Origin: Octopus vulgaris
Lineage: Eukaryota
Direction of reading: 5' to 3'
Length of the DNA stretch: 64,000 nucleotides
Assembly: GCA_951406725.2 (NCBI GenBank)
Contig: OX597814.1
Span: 189,596,001 to 189,660,000, forward strand
Shown here: in pieces, positions 3,510-61,275 of the stretch
Numbering within the stretch: the first letter of the stretch is position 1
Layout: the number at the start of each line of letters is the position of its first letter
Program-made: the position numbers and the translations under genes
Notes under the pieces: model-generated
Databases searched by the model: none
What the model was told of the DNA's origin: nothing
What the model saw: only the letters and a program-made list of their open reading frames with translations

Positions 3510-3653
3510 GCGTGAGTGACACGTGTCTGTGTGTATACATACATATATATATATATATAGAGAGAGAGAGAGTGACAGACAGATATATATATATATATAT
3601 ATATAGATAGATAGATCGATAGATAGATAGTCCCATACATACATGCATACATG

Positions 3654-3697
<44 letters not shown>

Positions 3698-3699
<2 letters not shown>

Positions 3700-4132
3700 T
3701 ATGGGTAGATAAAAAGCATAAGTAGAGATAGATTTGGCTGGTATTTCTCACTGATGAATCCTTTGATAGTTCGTTATGTGTCAATAGTGTGGGAGTGAAA
3801 GAAACGTAGTGGGGGGGGTCCGGTCTACCAAATCCACTCACAAGGCTTTGGTCGGACCAAGGCTATAGTAGGAGACACTTGCCCAAGGTGCCACACAGTG
3901 GGACTGGCACCCTGAATCATGTGGTTGGTAAGGAAGCTACTTACCACACAGCCAATCCTGCGCCTACATATATGTATGTGTGTAGGTGTGTGTGTGTGGG
4001 GGGAGGTGTTTATGTGTGTATATGTGTGTATGTGTGTATACATATACCTCTATGTACACACACAGACGAATACACAGATACACATAAACACCCCCCCACA
4101 CCACACACATACACGCACATAACCCCCCCAAT

Positions 4133-4170
<38 letters not shown>

Positions 4171-4333
4171 ATGATCCGGTTCCCGACTGAAGATTAGAGA
4201 CTTCGAGTGACCAGTCTGTTTTTTTTTTGTGTCGTCTCTTTGTGTGTTTTTGCGTTCTTGTCCCACTTTGTAATTTATATTTTATATTTAATTTCTATAC
4301 ATATATTATTGCGGGTAACGTACCTCTATCTCC

Positions 4334-4395
<62 letters not shown>

Positions 4396-4837
4396 TATGG
4401 GTAGATAAAAAGCATAAGTAGAGATAGATTTGGCTGGTATTTCTCACTGATGAATCCTTTGATAGTTCGTTATGTGTCAATAGTGTGGGAGTGAAAGAAA
4501 CGTAGTGGGGGGGGGGGTCCGGTCTACCAAATCCACTCACAAGGCTTTGGTCGGACCAAGGCTATAGTAGGAGACACTTGCCCAAGGTGCCACACAGTGG
4601 GACTGAACCCGGAATCATGTGGTTGGTAAGGAAGCTACTTACCACACAGCCACTCCTGCGCCTACATATATGTATGTGTGTAGGTGTGTGTGTGTGGGGG
4701 GGAGGTGTTTATGTGTGTATATGTGTGTATGTGTGTATACATATACCTCTATGTACACACACAGACGAATACACAGATACACATAAACACCCACACACAC
4801 ACACACATATACGCACATAACCCCCCCCCCCCAATAT

Positions 4838-4840
<3 letters not shown>
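3698..4840. repeat. Local direct duplication of about 440 bp (3698-~4135 and 4394-~4840), each containing a 5' fragment of SINE A on the minus strand
   Basis: GGTATGGGTAGATAAAAAGC starts at 3698 and 4394; near identity through GCACATAACCCCCC; both copies bounded by (TA)n. Confidence 0.9.
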
Positions 4841-4881
<41 letters not shown>

Positions 4882-13277: not shown

Positions 13278-13709
13278 CTTTTACTTGTACTTGTGACGGC
13301 GTTCACCCAGGGCGGGTTGAACCGGCTTCTTCTCTGTTCTTAACGGCATGACGAACCATGGCGGCCCACGCTCGACGGTCCTGTTCGAGGTCACTGGAGA
13401 TAGCAAGCCATTCGCGGTTCCATCTTCGCAGACCGACAACTTGCGGACATGAGAGTTCGGAGAGGTCCTCCTTTATCGTCGTTGCCCAGGTCTTCAGCTG
13501 CCCACCTGTGTGTTTGAGCCAGCTGGGAAGTGGAGGTGGGAGGAGGACATCGCGAATCAGCTCACCCTCTGGACGCCGGGCCGCATGACCGAACCACCTT
13601 AAGCGCCGTTTTAAAAGCACCGGAGGGAGGGGCCGGAGATTCAAGCGGCGACGAAGACCGGTTATAGGAACCCGATCAATGCGTCGTCAGCGAAGAATGC
13701 GGCAGAGAC
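13278..13709 (-). mobile_element. 5'-truncated RTE-clade LINE fragment (ORF C-terminus plus short 3' tail) with 12-bp TSD
   Basis: Peptide CLCRILR*RRIDRV..RRLRWFGHAARR..GGQLKTW..IKEDL..QDRRAW is typical of the region C-terminal to RTE reverse transcriptase; stop followed by CAAGTACAAGTA tail; TSD AATGCATTTCTA at 13266-13277 and 13710-13721. Confidence 0.85.
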
Positions 13710-15536: not shown

Positions 15537-16908
15537 AGGTGAAGCGGGGAGCTGGGAGAATCGTTGGCACGCTGACCTAAATTCTTAGCAGCATTTCGTC
15601 GGTCTTTATGTTCTGAGTTCAAATTCTGCCAAGGTCGACTTTGCCTTTGATTTTTTCCGGGTCGATAAATTAAGTACCAGTTGCGTATTGGGGTTGATCT
15701 AATCGACTGGCCTCCTCCCCCAAAATTTCGGGCCTTGTGCCTAGAGTAGATAAGAATGTGTTTAAGGCGGCGCGCTGGCAGAAATGTTAACACGCCGGGC
15801 GAAATGCGTAGCCGTATTTCGTCTGCCGTTACGTTCCGAGTTCAAATTCCGCCGAGGTCGACTTTGCCTTTCATCCTTTCGGGGTCGATTAAATATGTAC
15901 CAGTTACGCACTGGGGTTGAAATAATCCACTTAATCCGTTTGCCTGTCCTTGTTTGTCCTCTTTGTATTTAGCCCCTTGTGGGTAGTAAAGAAATAGGTA
16001 TTTCGCCAGTCTTTACGTTCTGAGTTCAAATTCCACCGAGGTCGACTTTGCCTTTTATTTTTTCGGGGTCGATAAATTAAGCACCAGTTACGTATTGGGT
16101 TCGATCTAATTGACTGGCCTCCTCCCCCAAAAATTTCGGGCCTTGTGCCTAGAGTTTGTCTGTCCTTGTTTGTCCTCTCTATGTTTAGCCCCTTGTGGGT
16201 AGTAAAGAAATAGGTATTTCGTCTGTCTTAACGTTCTGAGTTCAAATTCCGCCGAGGTCGACTTTGCTTTTCATCCTTTCAGGGTCGATTAAGTAAGTAC
16301 CAGTTACGCACTGGGGTTGAAATAATCCACTTAATCCGTTTGTCTGTCCTTGTTTGTCCTCTCTGTGTTTAGCCCCTTGTGGGTAGTAAAGAAAAAGGTA
16401 TTTCGTCTGCCGCTACATTCTGAGTTCAAATTCCGCCAAGGTCGACTTTGCCTTTCTTCTTTTCGGGGTCGATAAATTAAGCACCAGTTACATATTGGGT
16501 TCGATCTAATTGACTGGCCTCCTCCCCCAAAATTTCGGGCCTTGTGCCTAGAGTAGAAAATAATATTTTTAAGGCGTCGAGCAGGCAGAAACGCTTGCAC
16601 GCCGGCCGAAATGCACACCGGTATTTCGTCCGTCTTTATGTTCTGAGTTCAAATTCTGCCGAGGTCGATCTTGCCTTTTATCTTCTCGGTGTCGATAAAT
16701 TAAGTACCAGTTGCGTATTTGGTCGTTCTATTCGACTGGCCCCCTACCCGAAAATTGCGGGCCTTGTGCCTAGAGTAGAAAATAATCTGTTACTATTAAG
16801 GTAAAGCGGCGAGGTGGCAGAATCGTTAGCATACTGAGCTAAATGCTTAGCAGCATTTCGTCTGTCTTTAAGTTTCGGGGTCGAATTTGCTTTTCATCCT
16901 TCCGGGGT

Positions 16909-20687: not shown

Positions 20688-20974
20688 GTGTATTCAACTG
20701 AATTATATTACAGCTGTTGTTTGTCAACAAGAACTTCCGGCGGTGTATATTTCGTTTGTCACTGTTATTTATGACAACCCTAACCCTAAAACCTTAAACC
20801 TAACCCTAACCCTAAAACCTTTGCCCTAAAATCCTAACCCTAACCCTAAAACATTAAAGCTACACCAGTACAAACGCACGAACGATGTCATAAATAACAG
20901 TGACAAACAAAAAATACACCACGGATAGTTGTTGCTGACAAACAACGGTAGTAATTTTATTCAGCTGAATACAC
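20688..20974. repeat. About 89-bp inverted repeats enclosing degenerate telomere-like (TAACCC)n
   Basis: 20688-20776 GTGTATTCA..GTCACTGTTATTTATGACA vs 20886-20974 TGTCATAAATAACAGTGAC..TGAATACAC; spacer ACCCTAACCCTAAAACC repeats. Confidence 0.8.
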
Positions 20975-24957: not shown

Positions 24958-25054
<97 letters not shown>

Positions 25055-25055
<1 letters not shown>

Positions 25056-25730
25056 CATATTTGGGTACAGGGCATCACCAACAGTAAACAACATGAAATA
25101 CGAAAACAAATGAGTTAAATACGCAAATAAGGAGAGAGAAAAAGGACAAATAATACAAAGAATGACCCTTCATCAGTTGTCGGCTGTCTATCCGCTCCCC
25201 GTTTCGAGCAATCAACGACAATATGAGTCTTCGAAGACAGTTGCTCCTATAAATACCAAAATAAAATTTTGGATGTATGGACAGTCAAAGTTAGGAACAA
25301 CAACAGGACAGTGGAGACATTCAGGGAAACTGAACGAAAACAAATATAGAGGATCGTTAGATTTCAATGAGGGGGAAATAGTGAATGCTGAGAGAAATAT
25401 TTTCTTTGAAAAGAGAAAAGATAGAAAAGAGAGACATAGATGTCCAGTCCTTAGAACGTCCGTGCGAGAAAGAAAGATGGTCACGCGAAGAAAAGAAAGA
25501 TGAACGATGATCACGTGTGAGCAACGAGAGAGAGAGAGAGAGAAAGAGAAAGAGGGTGAGAGAGAGAGAGAGAAAAAGAGAAAGAGGGTGAGAGAGAGAG
25601 AAAAAGAGAAAGAGGGTGAGAGAGAGAGAGAGACAGATGATGAATTACTTGTACTTTTTTCTATCGTTATTTGCATATTTGCTTTCGTATTTCATGTTGT
25701 TTACTGTTGATGTCTTGTACCCAGATATGC
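25055..25730 (-). mobile_element. Microsatellite-embedded non-coding element with inverted terminal copy; relatives at 30745-31127 and 60805-61255
   Basis: GCATATTTGGGTACA..CAACAGTAAACAACATGAAATACGAAA (25056-25140) is inverted at 25655-25730; shared motif GAC(A/G)GCCGAC(A/G)AC(T/C)GATGAAGGG in all three copies. Confidence 0.7.
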
Positions 25731-25788
25731 ACATATATATATATATTATTTATGTTATATATATATATACATATATACATATATACAT

Positions 25789-25817
<29 letters not shown>

Positions 25818-25825
<8 letters not shown>

Positions 25826-26685
25826 CAACAATTGAGGGTAAAATTAATTAATTATTAATCAATTTTACCAAGTATTCAGTATGTAAAGGGACCATTTAAG
25901 GCGAATTCAAATTATTACATTATATAAAAGGGCTTAGTAAAATAAATTACTTTGCCACATACTGAACTCATTAGAAATAGCAGCTAAAAAAAAAAAAAAG
26001 TTGACTTGAGCAAACACTATATGAGAGAGATTTTCTTTAAGTATTAGAAATAGTTTTAAAAAATTTTTTAGCTGCTATTTCTAATGAGTTCAGTATGTGG
26101 CAAAGTAATTTATTTTACTAAGCCCTTTTATATAATGTAATAATTTGAATTCGCCTTAAATGGTCCCTTTACATACTGAATACTTGGTAAAATTGATTAA
26201 TAATTAATTAATTTTACCCTCAATTGTTGAAATTATAATTCATTTCTCTCTATTTAATGCTTCGGTTTTTACCGATAAAACATAGTGTTTATCAATTTTA
26301 ACCCACGCTGGTGGAAAGGGGAGAGCAGAAATTCTTCGGTTGCATATTTTGAATTTGATAGCACTGGTGGTTCGAGCAAATCTTCAGAAGTGATAAGAAG
26401 CCAAAAGGGTTTGCTCCCACTTTCAGTGTTCCCAAATCCAAATCAAGGAGTTCTGAGCTGACGAAAGAAATGTCGATTTGACTAATCTAGAAACGTACGT
26501 TCTCAAATAACCTTTGCATTTGTGATTTTTTTTAATGTTTTCACCCCCATACCTTCGTGAGTTGACTTGAGCAAACACTATATGAGAGAGATTTTCTTTA
26601 AGTATTAGAAATAGTTTTAAAAAATTTTTTAGCTGCTATTTCTAATGAGTTCAGTATGTGGCAAAGTAATTTATTTTACTAAGCC

Positions 26686-26695
<10 letters not shown>
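25818..26695 (+). mobile_element. Penelope/retrozyme-like element: 174-bp inverted segment followed by about 1.24 copies of a 561-bp monomer with a hammerhead ribozyme, in (TA)n
   Basis: IR 25818-25991 vs 26064-26237; direct repeat 25999-26134 vs 26560-26695; HHR at 26454-26505. Confidence 0.75.
26454..26505 (+). ncRNA. Type I minimal hammerhead ribozyme candidate
   Basis: TGAG-CTGACGA-A-AGA..GTC..GAC..TCT-A-GAAA-CGTACG-TT-CTCA: stem I TGAG/CTCA, palindromic stem III ACGTACGT, GUU triplet. Confidence 0.65.
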
Positions 26696-26771
<76 letters not shown>

Positions 26772-27127
26772 TATATATATATACATATATGTATATATAT
26801 AAGCTAGTACTTAAAATCAAAGTTTAGGTAAGAGATTTTAAGTTGTAGTATCGGAACATTATTGTGGGTATCTCCCTTGTAGCGTGCCTGTAGAACACGT
26901 TCTCCGCTTGCGGCTACCATACGCCATCTAGGGTAGTGTACTTTCGTTGCTGGGTGTACGTAAGAAATTATTCAGTGCACGTTGAGTGTATTTTAAATGA
27001 TTAATGCGGAAGTCAGAGTTTACTGGAAGATTTATTTAGGACAACGGTTGTTGTAAGCCGAAATGATTGTTGTCCTAGATAAAGGTTCCAGTACAATTTC
27101 TTTAGAACATATATATATATATATGGT

Positions 27128-30557: not shown

Positions 30558-30592
30558 GTTTCTGAAGAAGAGCTTTGCTCGAAACGTTAAAC
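30558..30592 (+). ncRNA. Minimal hammerhead ribozyme candidate (element about 30498-30612; family with 50370-50580 and 61522-61725)
   Basis: GTTT-CTGAAGA-A-GAGC-TTT-GCTC-GAAA-CG-TT-AAAC: stem I GTTT/AAAC, stem II GAGC/GCTC, ACGT palindrome. Confidence 0.65.
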
Positions 30593-32202
30593 CATTTTTC
30601 TTTCCCTTCCAAATTTTGACTGACTCCTTTTTATCAATATACTATATCTGTACACCACTTCAAACATTTTATACATACATACATACATACATAGATACAT
30701 ACACACAAGCACACACACACATATTTATATATATATATATATAAAACACTTTCTACTCTATACCGTTTTTGCCTGTCTCTCTCTCTCTCTCTCGTTACTC
30801 ACACGTGACCATCGTCCATCTTTCTTTTCCTACACGGACATTAAAAAAAGCGTACGTTTTTTCTCCCCCTTCTATCTTTTCCCGTTTAAAAAGATATTTC
30901 TCTCAGCGTTCCCTATTTTACCCTCGTTCTGGTCTAGCGTCCCTCCATGTTTCTTTTCTTTCGGTTTCCTTGTAGGTTTACACTGTCATGATTTTGTTCC
31001 CAACTTTGACCCTCCATAGATCCTACATTTTGTTTTGAAATTTTCGGAGCGACTGTCTTTGAAGACTCATATTGTCGTTGAATGCTGGAGATGAGTAGAC
31101 GGACGGCCGACAACCGATGAAGGGTTTACTAAACCGAGGCTTTAGTAGAAGAGACTTGCCTAAAGTATCACGCAATGGAACTGAAACTGGAACCATAGTG
31201 TTGGGAAGCAAATTTCTTAGCATAGAACCAGGAAAGTTAGTGCCTATGATCCTTCGCGAGATGTCTTAGACTAAGGGAAGGGGAATCAGTATCCCGAGAC
31301 TAAAGACCTAGCTCGGATTCTTGCAACGGTGTGGAATGAAGGCGGCCAAGAGTGAAGGTCTAACAGATGGTTGGATACCATTTGGTGGCATCAGGATAAA
31401 CAAGAGAATGAACGATTGTAAAATGCATGAATTGAACGATTGTAAACACCTGTAGTGAAATTCAGCTCACCCGTGTTATTGCTTATATTTCACCACACTC
31501 GGAATCTTCCCTGCGTTGGATCATGAGCCTAGAGTGAACCGTGGAGTTCGTCCCGGGATGTACTCCTGTGTGACTTTTTGGATACGTTGTGTATCTGGTC
31601 AGTACTTGTGAATGTATTTATAACAGGAATTTTTTTTACCTACGTAATTGCCTCCATGTCTGTTCCACCTGATTTTTCATATATCCATTCTTTACTCTGA
31701 TGAATTGATCCTCTGTAATGACATCGGAATCTAGGTTTGAATTATTTGAGCACTATTAAGTGTTTTCTATACTGAGAATATCTAGATCCCGATTGTTGAC
31801 TATATATGTGTTTGTGTGTGTGTGTGTGTATGTATCTAAGCGTGTAAATAGGCAGTTAATATTGGCATGTAATGACTCATGTAGTCGTTACTCTGAGTTT
31901 CATAGATAAAGTATATTGTCTAGTCGATAACATATACACCCTGACTCATGACTAGACACTGATTGATTAGTCAAGTGCTTTCGTACCAACTGATTATTGA
32001 CATACGTACATGTATACACACACACACACACACAGACACATGCACATACACACACACAGACACACAGACACACATACACATGAACACTCTTCATAACGTT
32101 TTTATTTTGGAGCTATTTTATTCACTTTCCACTCGTACTCGCATCCACCCACATTCGAGCATAAACATCATGAATATATGTATATATATATATATATATA
32201 TA

Positions 32203-38289: not shown

Positions 38290-39447
38290 GTTTTTAATTT
38301 ACACACAAGGTCAGAAATTTTTAGAGAAAGCGGTTTGTCGATACTATCAGCTCCTGTGGAAAACTAGGAATATATCTTATCGACCCAAAAGAGATGGAAA
38401 GCAGATGCCGCTAAGCATTTTGTCCGATATTTTAACGATTCTATCAGCTTGCCGCCTTAGAACAATCCAAGTAATCCCTTCTAGTATAGACATAAGGCTT
38501 GAAATTTTGGAGGTAGGGGTGAGTCGATTTCATCGATCCCAGTATTCAATTAGTACTTACTTTTTCCAACTCCGAAAGGATGAAAATCAAAGTTGACATC
38601 GATGGAATTTGAAGTCAGAATGTAAAGACGACGAAATACCGCTAAGCATTCTGTCTGTCCTTTTAATGATTCTGTCAGCTCACTGCCTTAGAGCAATCCA
38701 AATACTTTCTTATTTTGGCACAGGGCCAGCAATTTTGCAGGATGGGGAAATGGATTACGTCAATCCACGTGCTTGACTGGAACACATTTTATCGTCCCTG
38801 AAACAATGAACGTCAAAGTCGACCTCGGCGGAACTTGAGGTTAGAACCTAAAGATGGACGAATGCCGCTAGCATTTTGTCCAGAGTAATAACGACTCTGC
38901 CAGCTCGTCGTTCTGAGCAATGCAAACAATAATAATTGTCCACTCAACCATTTACAAATGTTAGAATCATTTGAAAAAGATTGGTAATGCCGATTTCAAA
39001 TCCCTGGGAAAAAAAGGCCAGCAACATCGGGGTAGGAATAAGACGATTACATCGCCCCCACAACTCAATTTGCAGCTAATTTATCGACCCTGAAAGGATG
39101 AAAAGCAAAATCGACCTCGGCGGAATTTGAACTCAGAATGTAAAGGCAGACAAAATGCTGTTAAAGGGAAATCTGACAAGACAGTCAGTCTCCCGCTGAC
39201 ACTCGTTGACGCTACATCGAAGAGGCCAGGGAACAGAAGAAAGAAGAAGAAATAAGACATGCACCCAACACCAGAGCTGAAGACACCTCCGAAGAGGAGG
39301 TGTAGGGGCCGAAACCGGACGTGGTTCCTCCTGATGATGTCTTCAGCTAACTGGATTCCACAAAGAAGCTGTTGTGGCAGCAGACCACGAAACACGGTTG
39401 GAATTCCTCACCCGGCTTAGGTAACGATTCTGCCAGCTTGCCGCCTT
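38290..39447 (-). mobile_element. Cluster of four old SINE B copies, the last interrupted by an insert of about 245 bp (39165-39408)
   Basis: Recurring ACGATTCTGCCAGCT(T/C)GCCGCCTT-like heads at about 38455, 38690, 38910, 39447. Confidence 0.75.
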
Positions 39448-42738: not shown

Positions 42739-43872
42739 AAGGCGGCGAGCTGGCAGAAACGTTAGCACGCCGAGCGAAATGCTAAGCGGTATTTCGTCTG
42801 CCGCTACGTTCTGAGTTCGAATTCCACCGAGGTCGACTTTGCCTTTCATCCTTTCGGGGTCGATTAAATAAGTACCAGTTACGCACTGGGATCGATGTAA
42901 TCGACTTAATCCGTTTGCCTGTCCTTGTTTGTCCCCTCTGTGTTTATCCCCTTGTGGGTAGTAAAGGAATAGGTATTTCGTCTGCCACTACGTTCTGAGT
43001 TCAAATTCCACCGAGGTCGACTTTGCCTTTCATCCTTCCTTTCGGGGTCGATTAAATAAGTACCAGTTACGCACTGGGGTCGATGTAATCGACTTAATAC
43101 TAATGTCTGTCCTTGTTTGTTCCCTCTGTGTTTAGCCCCTTGTGTGTAGTAAAGGAATAGGTATTTCGTCTGCCGCTACGTTCTGAGTTCAAATTTCGCC
43201 GAGGTCGACTTTGCCTTTCATCCTTTCGGGGTCGATTAAATAAGTACCAGTTACGCACTGGGGTCGATGTAATCGACTTAATCCGTTTGTCTGTCCTTGT
43301 TTGTCCCCTCTGTGTTTAGCCCCTTGTGGGTAGTAAAGGAATAGGTATTTCGTCTGCCACTACGTTCTGAGTTCAAATTCCACCGAGGTCGACTTTGCCT
43401 TTCATCCTTCCTTTCGGGGTCGATTAAATAAGTACCAGTTACGCACTGGGGTCGATGTAATCGACTTAATACTAATGTCTGTCCTTGTTTGTTCCCTCTG
43501 TGTTTAGCCCCTTGTGTGTAGTAAAGGAATAGGTATTTCGTCTGCCGCTACGTTCTGAGTTCAAATTTCGCCGAGGTCGACTTTGCCTTTCATCCTTTCG
43601 GGGTCGATTAAATAAGTACCAGTTACGCACTGGGGTCGATGTAATCGACTTAATCCGTTTGTCTGTCCTTGTTTGTCCCCTCTGTGTTTAGCCCCTTGTG
43701 GGTAGTAAAGGAATATGTATTTCGTCTGCCGCTACGTTCTGAGTTCAAATTTCGCCGAGGTCGATTAAATAAGTACCAGTTCTGTACTGAAGTCGATGTA
43801 ATCGACTTTATCCGTTTGTCTGTCCTTGTTTGTCCCCTTTGTGTGTAGCCCCTTGTGGGTAATAAAGAAATA
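42739..43872 (+). mobile_element. Six-unit tandem array of SINE B1 inside a single 17-bp TSD
   Basis: GTATTTCGTCTGCC at 42789, 42973, 43161, 43345, 43533, 43717; TSD AGAAAATGTTGATGAAA at 42722-42738 and 43873-43889. Confidence 0.92.
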
Positions 43873-50468: not shown

Positions 50469-50503
50469 ATTTAATGTTTCGAGCGGGGCTCTTCGTCAGA
50501 AAC
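50469..50503 (-). ncRNA. Minimal hammerhead motif (element 50370-50580)
   Basis: Minus strand GTTT-CTGACGA-A-GAGC-CCC-GCTC-GAAA-CA-TT-AAAT. Confidence 0.55.
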
Positions 50504-50613
50504 ATAAACAAAGGAAAGGTCCAACAAAGGGAAGACGGAGAAAGAAAATCGCCAACGATACACACACGGTCACATATTGAATGACCGGAAGGGAATGTAT
50601 ATATATATATGAT

Positions 50614-60789: not shown

Positions 60790-61275
60790 TATATATATAT
60801 ATGACCATCAACCAGCTTTCCTTTCCTCATGTGACCACCCTTCTTTTCCTTTAAACCTTTGCAGAGTTCAGATGCATTCGTACCTGTCTCCTCTCTTTTC
60901 TCTTATATAAGAATTCTCTTCCACCGTTCGCCATCTTAACTCGTCTGAGCATAACGGCCTTCCCTGTTGTATTCGTTTATTTGATTTGGTGTATATCTTG
61001 TTTTTGCTACCAACTTTAACCCTCCGCAAATCCCTAATTTTATAATTTCGGTTCGCGGGACCAACTGCCTTCAAAGTCTTATCTTGTCGATTTATTGGTC
61101 AAAATAAGGAGTAGAAGGACAGCCGACGACTGATGAAGGGTTGTTTTTATGTTACTTGTCTTGTTTTCCATTTGTTTTTCTTGTTTGTTTACGTACCCAA
61201 AGTTACTTTCGTATTTCATGTTGTTTATGACTTGTATATATGACTTGTGCATACCTATATACATAAATATGTATG

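Follow-up and report, generated by a model that had tools for sequence, protein, structure and literature searches.

The window analysed here, a stretch of 64,000 nucleotides, contains a compact insertion between two (TA)n arrays (Table 1). Self-comparison of the sequence revealed that 25818–25991 is a 100% reverse complement of 26064–26237 (174 nt) and that 25999–26134 recurs unchanged at 26560–26695 (136 nt), giving a period of 561 bp and 1.24 units in direct orientation. The 561-bp unit is GC-poor (32%) and has no further copy within the 64-kb window. The inverted arm and the forward unit meet head-to-head in an A-run (25986–25999) in which six A are templated, seven are extra and the last is base 1 of the forward unit; assembly error may affect the length of this run. 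The extra A and the position of the arm's inner end at the tip of a hairpin had been overlooked in the original prediction. What it did describe at this level (an indel-free 174-bp inverted copy, a 561-bp unit whose first 136 bp are repeated for about 1.24 units, and flanking (TA)n arrays on both sides) proved exact, with 0 differences between the repeated parts.

Table 1. Features of the insertion and its target site (window coordinates).
Feature	Position	Strand	Evidence and remarks
Left (TA)n-rich array	25733–25821		Repeat search; putative one side of the insertion target
Inverted 5'-truncated arm (unit positions 66–239)	25818–25991	−	100% complementarity; 4-nt outer merge with the TA array
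Seven extra A at the head-to-head joint	25992–25998		Extend the templated A6 at the hairpin tip
Full 561-bp ORF-less unit	25999–26559	+	
AT-rich hairpin 1, 13+6 bp	26042–26085	+	−13.8 kcal/mol; its tip marks where the inverted arm stops
Stem enclosing the first TA stop site (26129–26134)	26088–26180	+	−22.4 kcal/mol
AT-rich hairpin 2, 15 bp	26186–26218	+	−12.9 kcal/mol; the second TA stop site (26234–26237) follows closely downstream
Type I hammerhead motif (candidate)	26454–26505	+	Core CUGACGA 26458–26464, GAAA 26490–26493; predicted cut after 26501 (GUU)
Partial second unit (first 136 bp)	26560–26695	+	100% identity; 6-nt outer merge with the TA array
Right (TA)n array	26690–26801		Repeat search; putative other half of the target site

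Both outer ends of the insertion enter the arrays through the unit's own TA runs (6 nt at 26129–26134 and 4 nt at 26234–26237). The unit has four such runs covering 23 of its 561 positions, and the chance of both ends falling within them is approximately 0.002. This bears out the prediction that both ends stop at internal TATA motifs merging with the array, and TA microhomology at the target gains support from it. Arrays of (TA)8 or longer make up 3.6% of the window. Counted downstream from the predicted cut of the plus-strand ribozyme, the two ends lie at 194 and 297 nt, an offset of 103 nt between them. No target duplication is readable within the flanking microsatellite, and a tRNA search found no tRNA.

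The unit had been described as lacking an open reading frame, and the searches for coding content agree. The longest stop-to-stop frame has 70 amino acids, and the seven peptides of the unit gave a single weak match to Pfam (E 0.053), which is under the cut-off. A 60-amino-acid frame had no longer homologue among 33 candidates. The reverse transcriptase (RT) and GIY-YIG frame expected of an autonomous Penelope-like element (PLE) is absent from the insertion. We rejected as a gene a 39-amino-acid frame that enters the ribozyme; it finds no match in Pfam, and the family allele at 26369 interrupts it with a stop. Stem II of the ribozyme (26470–26481) contains an ATG followed three codons on by a stop; the ORF of the anole PLE also starts in stem II.

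The candidate hammerhead has all of the core positions C3–A9, G12–A15.1, U16.1 and H17 (26458–26464, 26490–26493 and 26500–26501), with a U at H17 as the NUH rule permits. Stem I has four Watson-Crick pairs beside the core and may extend to 26444–26516. When the whole unit is folded, pair probabilities reach 0.66–0.69 in stem I and 0.82–0.91 in stem II; that of the intramolecular stem III is 0.01, so the motif could act only as a dimer. Stem III is an 8-nt palindrome with a predicted duplex energy of −9.8 kcal/mol for such a dimer. A descriptor specific to this motif and requiring the palindrome matched twice in 20,000 dinucleotide shuffles (both strands). The same descriptor freed of the palindrome matched 66 times in 20,000 shuffles and at two places in the window, this motif and 1413. 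The 10.1–11.1 pair closing stem II is an A·A mismatch (A26465 vs. A26489), helix II is broken by a 3x3 internal loop, and GUU is a poorer cleavage site than GUC. An Rfam search returned no hammerhead at the motif, even at E ≤ 10; the Rfam gathering threshold is likewise not reached by two minimal motifs of textbook appearance that lie elsewhere in the window. The ribozyme proposed at this position thus keeps its intact core, its palindromic stem III and its rarity among shuffles, and loses the closing pair of stem II and any match in Rfam.

Substitutions across the family add to this picture. None of the best-supported 40 of 112 substitution rows falls within 26444–26541, hinting that the motif may be kept in the family. 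The A·A mismatch is likewise absent from those 40 rows and is, therefore, probably common among copies. The 10.1–11.1 pair is the most conserved after 15.1–16.1, and a published filter rejected hits with such a mismatch (PMC3088659, available text). PLE hammerheads, which have low activity, are also described as showing high conservation of G10.1–C11.1 (PMC4209133, available text). Our literature search on 10.1–11.1 mismatches returned none. Self-cleavage of the candidate appears doubtful from its sequence, because stem II opens with the A·A mismatch, the cut would follow GUU and stem III depends on a second copy. Furthermore, this copy holds one hammerhead and cannot, by itself, release a monomer.

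Folding of the unit is concentrated in its AT-rich half (25999–26300; z −5.96 vs. shuffles), where the hairpins of Table 1 lie. The GC-richer half does not fold significantly better than shuffles (z −1.61), and the long hairpin previously placed at about 26313–26425 did no better than shuffles either (z −0.57). The loop of hairpin 1 spans 26062–26065, and the inner end of the inverted arm coincides with its tip. As a sole clue, this coincidence is weak, given the eight loops in the fold. At 22 positions picked from the best 40 substitution rows, variation kept the pairing in 10 cases, broke it in six and was unpaired in six, a count in which two of the six breaking positions form one pair and in which transitions keep approximately half of the pairs by chance.

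Sequencing data indicate that the unit belongs to a large family. Part of the unit occurs in 20 of the 24 listed sequencing runs (10 studies and four organism labels), with a maximum of 0.74 of its words in any one run. None of the listed runs containing it is of assured RNA type, X11 and X15 being classed as RNA by guess. Contigs of four runs (X1, X3, X11 and X15) were aligned to one unit length (26090–26650). They numbered 3,608 in X1 and 2,334 in X3, two DNA-type runs that differ in organism label and study, and 189 and 60 in the other two; all 30 bins of the unit were covered in all four runs. X1 possibly represents the source of the window, and X3 gives the same picture. The original prediction had named single-copy status as a check on itself, and these counts establish a multi-copy sequence. 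In X1, 1,243 of the 3,608 contigs are at least 99% alike and the remainder more diverged; the summed depth per bin, which is not a copy number, ranges from 2x10^4 to 1.6x10^6. Contigs of X11 and X15 cross the predicted cut site, an observation on contigs that has no bearing on transcription, strand or circularity. Whole-copy exact-pattern scans of metagenome, viral and prokaryote genome contigs returned nothing.

The family also closes on itself. The 32 contigs listed from 6,302 records overlap round the whole 561-bp circle, and three of them bridge the joint 26559/26560 with 31 nt or more to either side. Further rows continue in register beyond the limits of the aligned stretch. Each bridging record differs from our sequence at 4–12 letters and hence represents another copy rather than this locus. 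In both X1 and X3, the proportion of contigs that continue into unlike sequence is 0. Closure at 561 bp, with no obligatory sequence in between, identifies a non-autonomous unit, as had been proposed, rather than the terminus of a larger element that was linked up by chance on one occasion. The contigs are short, none of those listed spanning the unit, and they show the single adjacencies but no array containing two complete ribozymes. Two contigs of X11 and one of X15 (two studies) represent copies that run into (TA)n at 26230, no more than 7 nt from the outer end of the arm, and one further copy ends at 26217, all among the best 24 of 245 loose-end rows. The inversion joint of our locus is not among these 24. 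On these very few cases, copy ends look clustered at 26217–26237 rather than freely permuted. Variable permutation had been expected to support a circular template; preferred internal starts and 5' truncation are to be expected on a circle or an uncut tandem RNA alike, and the few visible ends do not discriminate between the two.

One contig of X3 carries another strand-switch joint (26161–26445). A similar joint in X1 (26090–26601) was rejected as an inversion, since hairpin 1, lying at the margin of the aligned stretch, accounts for it. RNA editing was also rejected, the excess of A>G over T>C changes in X1 (17 vs. 11) being too small. In X11 and X15, contigs that show 7–9 gaps in the ribozyme region and altered but still pairing hairpin-1 letters (26457–26551, 26181 and 26610) point to diverged subfamilies.

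Two alleles connect the duplicated parts of the insertion. The family allele at 26189 is G, with 97.7% (X1), 98.5% (X3), 99.4% (X11) and 73.9% (X15) of the depth, whereas both arms of our copy have A. At 26566, the family A makes up 81% (X1) and 96% (X3) of the depth, whereas both repeats have C. Two random RNAs would rarely share such alleles, which argues for one template; a single molecule, or a single source locus, is the likely origin of the insertion. The 310 duplicated bp show 0 differences, which sets a 95% upper bound of approximately 1% on divergence since insertion unless conversion or assembly smoothed the differences, and agrees with the young age originally assigned to the insertion.

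Other repeats in the window were recorded alongside. Textbook-looking minimal PLE hammerheads below the Rfam threshold lie at 30558–30593 (plus strand) and about 50470–50505 (minus strand); each has CUGAAGA or CUGACGA, an extra A, a 4-bp stem II starting from G-C, GAAA and a short stem I, and they are probably the ends of another Penelope-like family. A further CUGAAGA...GAAA with a GC-rich stem (39271–39350) is followed by its own reverse complement (39346, minus strand) and is possibly a degenerate or self-blocking hammerhead. An older repeat family is located just left of the insertion (25052–25525), with relatives at 30816–31125 and 60996–61227 and an inverted piece at 25641–25730 (71–78% alike). 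It has a CUGAUGA half-core at 25176 (minus strand) and 61130 (plus strand), no GAAA nearby and no Pfam match, and it may be a decayed PLE end. A 287-bp element at 20688–20974 encloses a degenerate telomere-like (AACCCT)n core between inverted ends of 89 bp that are 84% alike. The local duplication of approximately 700 bp at 3647–4876 (97–98% alike, the differences being partly in homopolymer length) is either recent or an assembly or haplotype artefact. A 184-bp unit with a higher period of 372/400 bp is arrayed in tandem at 42788–43764, where copies are 93–98% alike, and at 15593–16712; we take this unit to resemble an octopus SINE-type repeat. A 127-amino-acid frame at 13303–13686 (minus strand) without a Pfam match is presumably the end of an RTE-type LINE.

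We consider the best explanation of the locus, with somewhat more confidence than doubt, to be a young insertion of a high-copy, ORF-less, 561-bp tandem-type hammerhead repeat that a PLE enzyme probably reverse-transcribed from one RNA longer than the unit into (TA)n. Transcription of a tandem source locus would yield an RNA that the weak ribozyme leaves mostly uncut. The endonuclease of a partner PLE would then break a TA array, and the freed end would pair with the TATA run located 194 nt past the cut site. From there, the cDNA would run 697 nt back through the ribozyme and stop, leaving the 5' truncation at 25999. The inverted arm could arise from the same molecule in two ways. The cDNA might fold back on its own A6 tract at the hairpin tip, with a short added tail and then self-copying to the next TATA. 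Alternatively, a second priming might occur on the other side of the break. Repair would close the joints, and the resulting copy with its single ribozyme is predicted to be a dead-end offspring.

Crossing the cut site requires a circle, an uncut multimer or a template jump, and the locus fits all three. The original prediction of a circular or multimeric RNA template is supported as to a template longer than one unit, of which the circle is one possible form. An uncut tandem RNA fits the locus as well as a circle does. We lean slightly toward the uncut multimer as the template, regard the circle as possible and think a jump improbable; the multimer is put ahead of the circle on account of the weak-looking ribozyme and of the failure of eight of nine predicted frog retrozyme dimers to cleave, as stated in the available preprint text (Li, Clavereau and Pollet, 2026; bioRxiv 10.64898/2026.07.22.740005). 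Several points weigh against the best explanation as a whole. Priming proceeds without homology in the anole PLE, and the 103-nt offset exceeds the 30–40-bp PLE tail. The perfect internal identity is equally expected from a circle, from local DNA copying or from assembly smoothing. Last, there is no protein trace of the autonomous partner.

The same element and enzyme acting on a 561-nt circular RNA, produced by double hammerhead cleavage and ligation and copied 1.24 times round, is a possible but less probable account. It is consistent with the closure of the family on itself, and it requires the identity that the 136-bp overlap displays. The intact core letters, the formation of stems I and II, the palindrome duplex available to a dimeric ribozyme and the lack of substitutions in 26444–26541 among the best 40 of 112 rows suit it as well. 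Such circles are proven for the retrozymes of coral, mussel and axolotl (Cervera and de la Pena, 2020; PMC7229834) and have been proposed as PLE templates (PMC4209133), as far as the available texts go. However, the A·A at 10.1–11.1 and the GUU site speak against the required cleavage, and contigs look the same for a ligated and an uncut junction. The 561 nt also exceed the 170–400 nt of invertebrate retrozyme circles, though they fall within the 51–972 bp given in the available text of the preprint. In its most far-reaching form, this account makes one of the most abundant young repeats of a probably cephalopod host a 561-nt circular-RNA retrozyme whose hammerhead works with dimer or protein help despite A·A and GUU, and in which a single circle supplies each insertion together with its mirror arm. 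We find that form doubtful.

It is unlikely that the unit is a DNA-level repeat, either a satellite or of Helitron/Helentron type, with the tandem and the inversion formed by replication or repair at AT hairpins and the hammerhead a relic or a chance match. Rolling-circle elements do give partial tandems and favour T/A sites. The long, near-perfect AT hairpins (z −5.96 for 25999–26300) and the arm ending at a hairpin tip are also in keeping with such an origin. However, the hammerhead motif would arise by chance at approximately 1e-4 per unit, fixed Helitron-type ends were not seen, and 5' ends that meet head-to-head while both 3' ends lie in (TA)n conform to the pattern of PLEs.

Less likely still is that the unit is an end piece or deletion product of an autonomous PLE, with the head-to-tail joint a one-off template jump. 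According to the text available to us, most metazoan minimal hammerheads are the ends of truncated PLEs (PMC4209133), and frog retrozymes match the pseudo-LTRs (pLTRs) of PLEs (bioRxiv 10.64898/2026.07.22.740005); the loose ends considered here come from the best 24 of 245 rows. Against this, the joint is present in other, diverged copies, neither DNA-type run has any share of contigs continuing into unlike sequence, and a coding trace is absent. Descent of the unit from a pLTR is likely and compatible with the best explanation. Equally improbable is a real unit whose inverted arm and/or 136-bp repeat at this locus are assembly artefacts: the 100% internal identity, the absence of the joint from the loose-end rows listed (24 of 245) and the partly homopolymer-length differences in the local duplication of approximately 700 bp would agree with it, but the left flank mirrors nothing, the arm's outer end lies no more than 7 nt from a point at which other copies run into (TA)n, and the repeat continues the family circle in register.

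The assembly of partial-tandem and inverted insertions by PLEs and the role of their ribozyme are still open (PMC8557442, PMC11167929; available texts). A short, abundant and polymorphic family is good material for both questions. Allele sharing between arms separates one template from two, and overlap identity in copies longer than the unit bears on circle versus multimer. If the circular account is true, private alleles in thousands of copies could settle circle versus multimer and fold-back versus second priming from genome data. If the host is a cephalopod, the family would extend retrozyme-type elements to this group, for which the literature searched yielded none. A working ribozyme with A·A at 10.1–11.1, if true, would widen the hammerhead consensus. 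None of these prospects changes the class of element.

The novelty of the locus had been over-rated, for its layout, its ribozyme type and the link between retrozymes and Penelope are already in print (PMC8557442, PMC4209133, PMC7229834, bioRxiv 10.64898/2026.07.22.740005). What is new is that the duplicated arms share family-rare alleles and that the inverted arm stops at a hairpin tip. In the literature searched on octopus or cephalopod hammerhead or ribozyme retroelements, the family is undescribed; Repbase/Dfam, the library of PMC13282606 and the preprint supplements may already list it. Repeats flanking the insertion resemble those of octopus. According to the available text of PMC13282606, PLEs account for 6.83% of the genome in Octopus vulgaris, and 31 of their families have been active recently; candidate partners thus exist if the host is octopus. 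The supplement of that study contains no repeat sequences and no mention of 'hammerhead'.

In layout, the insertion matches published PLE insertions, as originally proposed. Partial tandems, inverted 5'-truncated copies, unequal outer ends and a (TA)n bias are standard for these elements (PMC8557442). The (TA)n target is noted for Naiad and Hydra and a microsatellite bias for Neptune (PMC8557442, PMC3846280), and self-priming has been proposed for PLE inversions (Arkhipova et al., 2013; PMC3846280). Our locus shares with the insertions described in the available parts of these two papers the partial tandem, the inverted 5' arm, the unequal ends, the (TA)n target and the lack of a readable target duplication. 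Unlike them, it has no RT/GIY-YIG frame, its ends are offset by 103 nt rather than 30–40, and its joint contains an A-run and a 72-nt spacer.

Animal non-LTR retrozymes provide the second comparison. ORF-less hammerhead tandems yield circles in coral, mussel and axolotl (Cervera and de la Pena, 2020; PMC7229834), in a text that has no match for octopus or cephalopod. The preprint argues that retrozymes are non-autonomous PLE derivatives of 51–972 bp with dispersed monomers (bioRxiv 10.64898/2026.07.22.740005). Insofar as these sources describe them, our unit resembles such retrozymes in being ORF-less and low in GC, in having no LTR and one type I hammerhead, and in its head-to-tail continuity, high copy number, dispersed monomer offspring and proposed mobilisation by PLEs. 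It is unlike them in length (561 bp vs. invertebrate circles of 170–400 nt) and in the A·A and GUU of its ribozyme. By the two-ribozyme rule of the preprint, it also differs from 'active' retrozymes, since the copy has one ribozyme.

The ribozyme itself is most similar to the PLE hammerheads with a small palindromic helix III described for Drosophila, rotifer, shrimp and mosquito (PMC4209133, available text), with which it shares a type I core, a short stem I, a long helix II region and a palindromic stem III dependent on dimerisation. It differs from them in having no G10.1–C11.1 pair and in the 3x3 internal loop of helix II. The anole Poseidon element PAc offers a biochemical counterpart (Frangieh et al., 2024; PMC11167929). 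In the experiments covered by the available text, both target strands were cut and extended in vitro, initiation was internal and downstream of the ribozyme, uncut RNA was the main substrate, and priming occurred without target homology. The likely internal start downstream of the ribozyme, the AT-rich target, the use of both strands and the read-through of an uncut ribozyme at our locus are all PAc-like. Unlike those of PAc, an autonomous element with no target homology, however, the ends of the insertion overlap their target by 4–6 nt.
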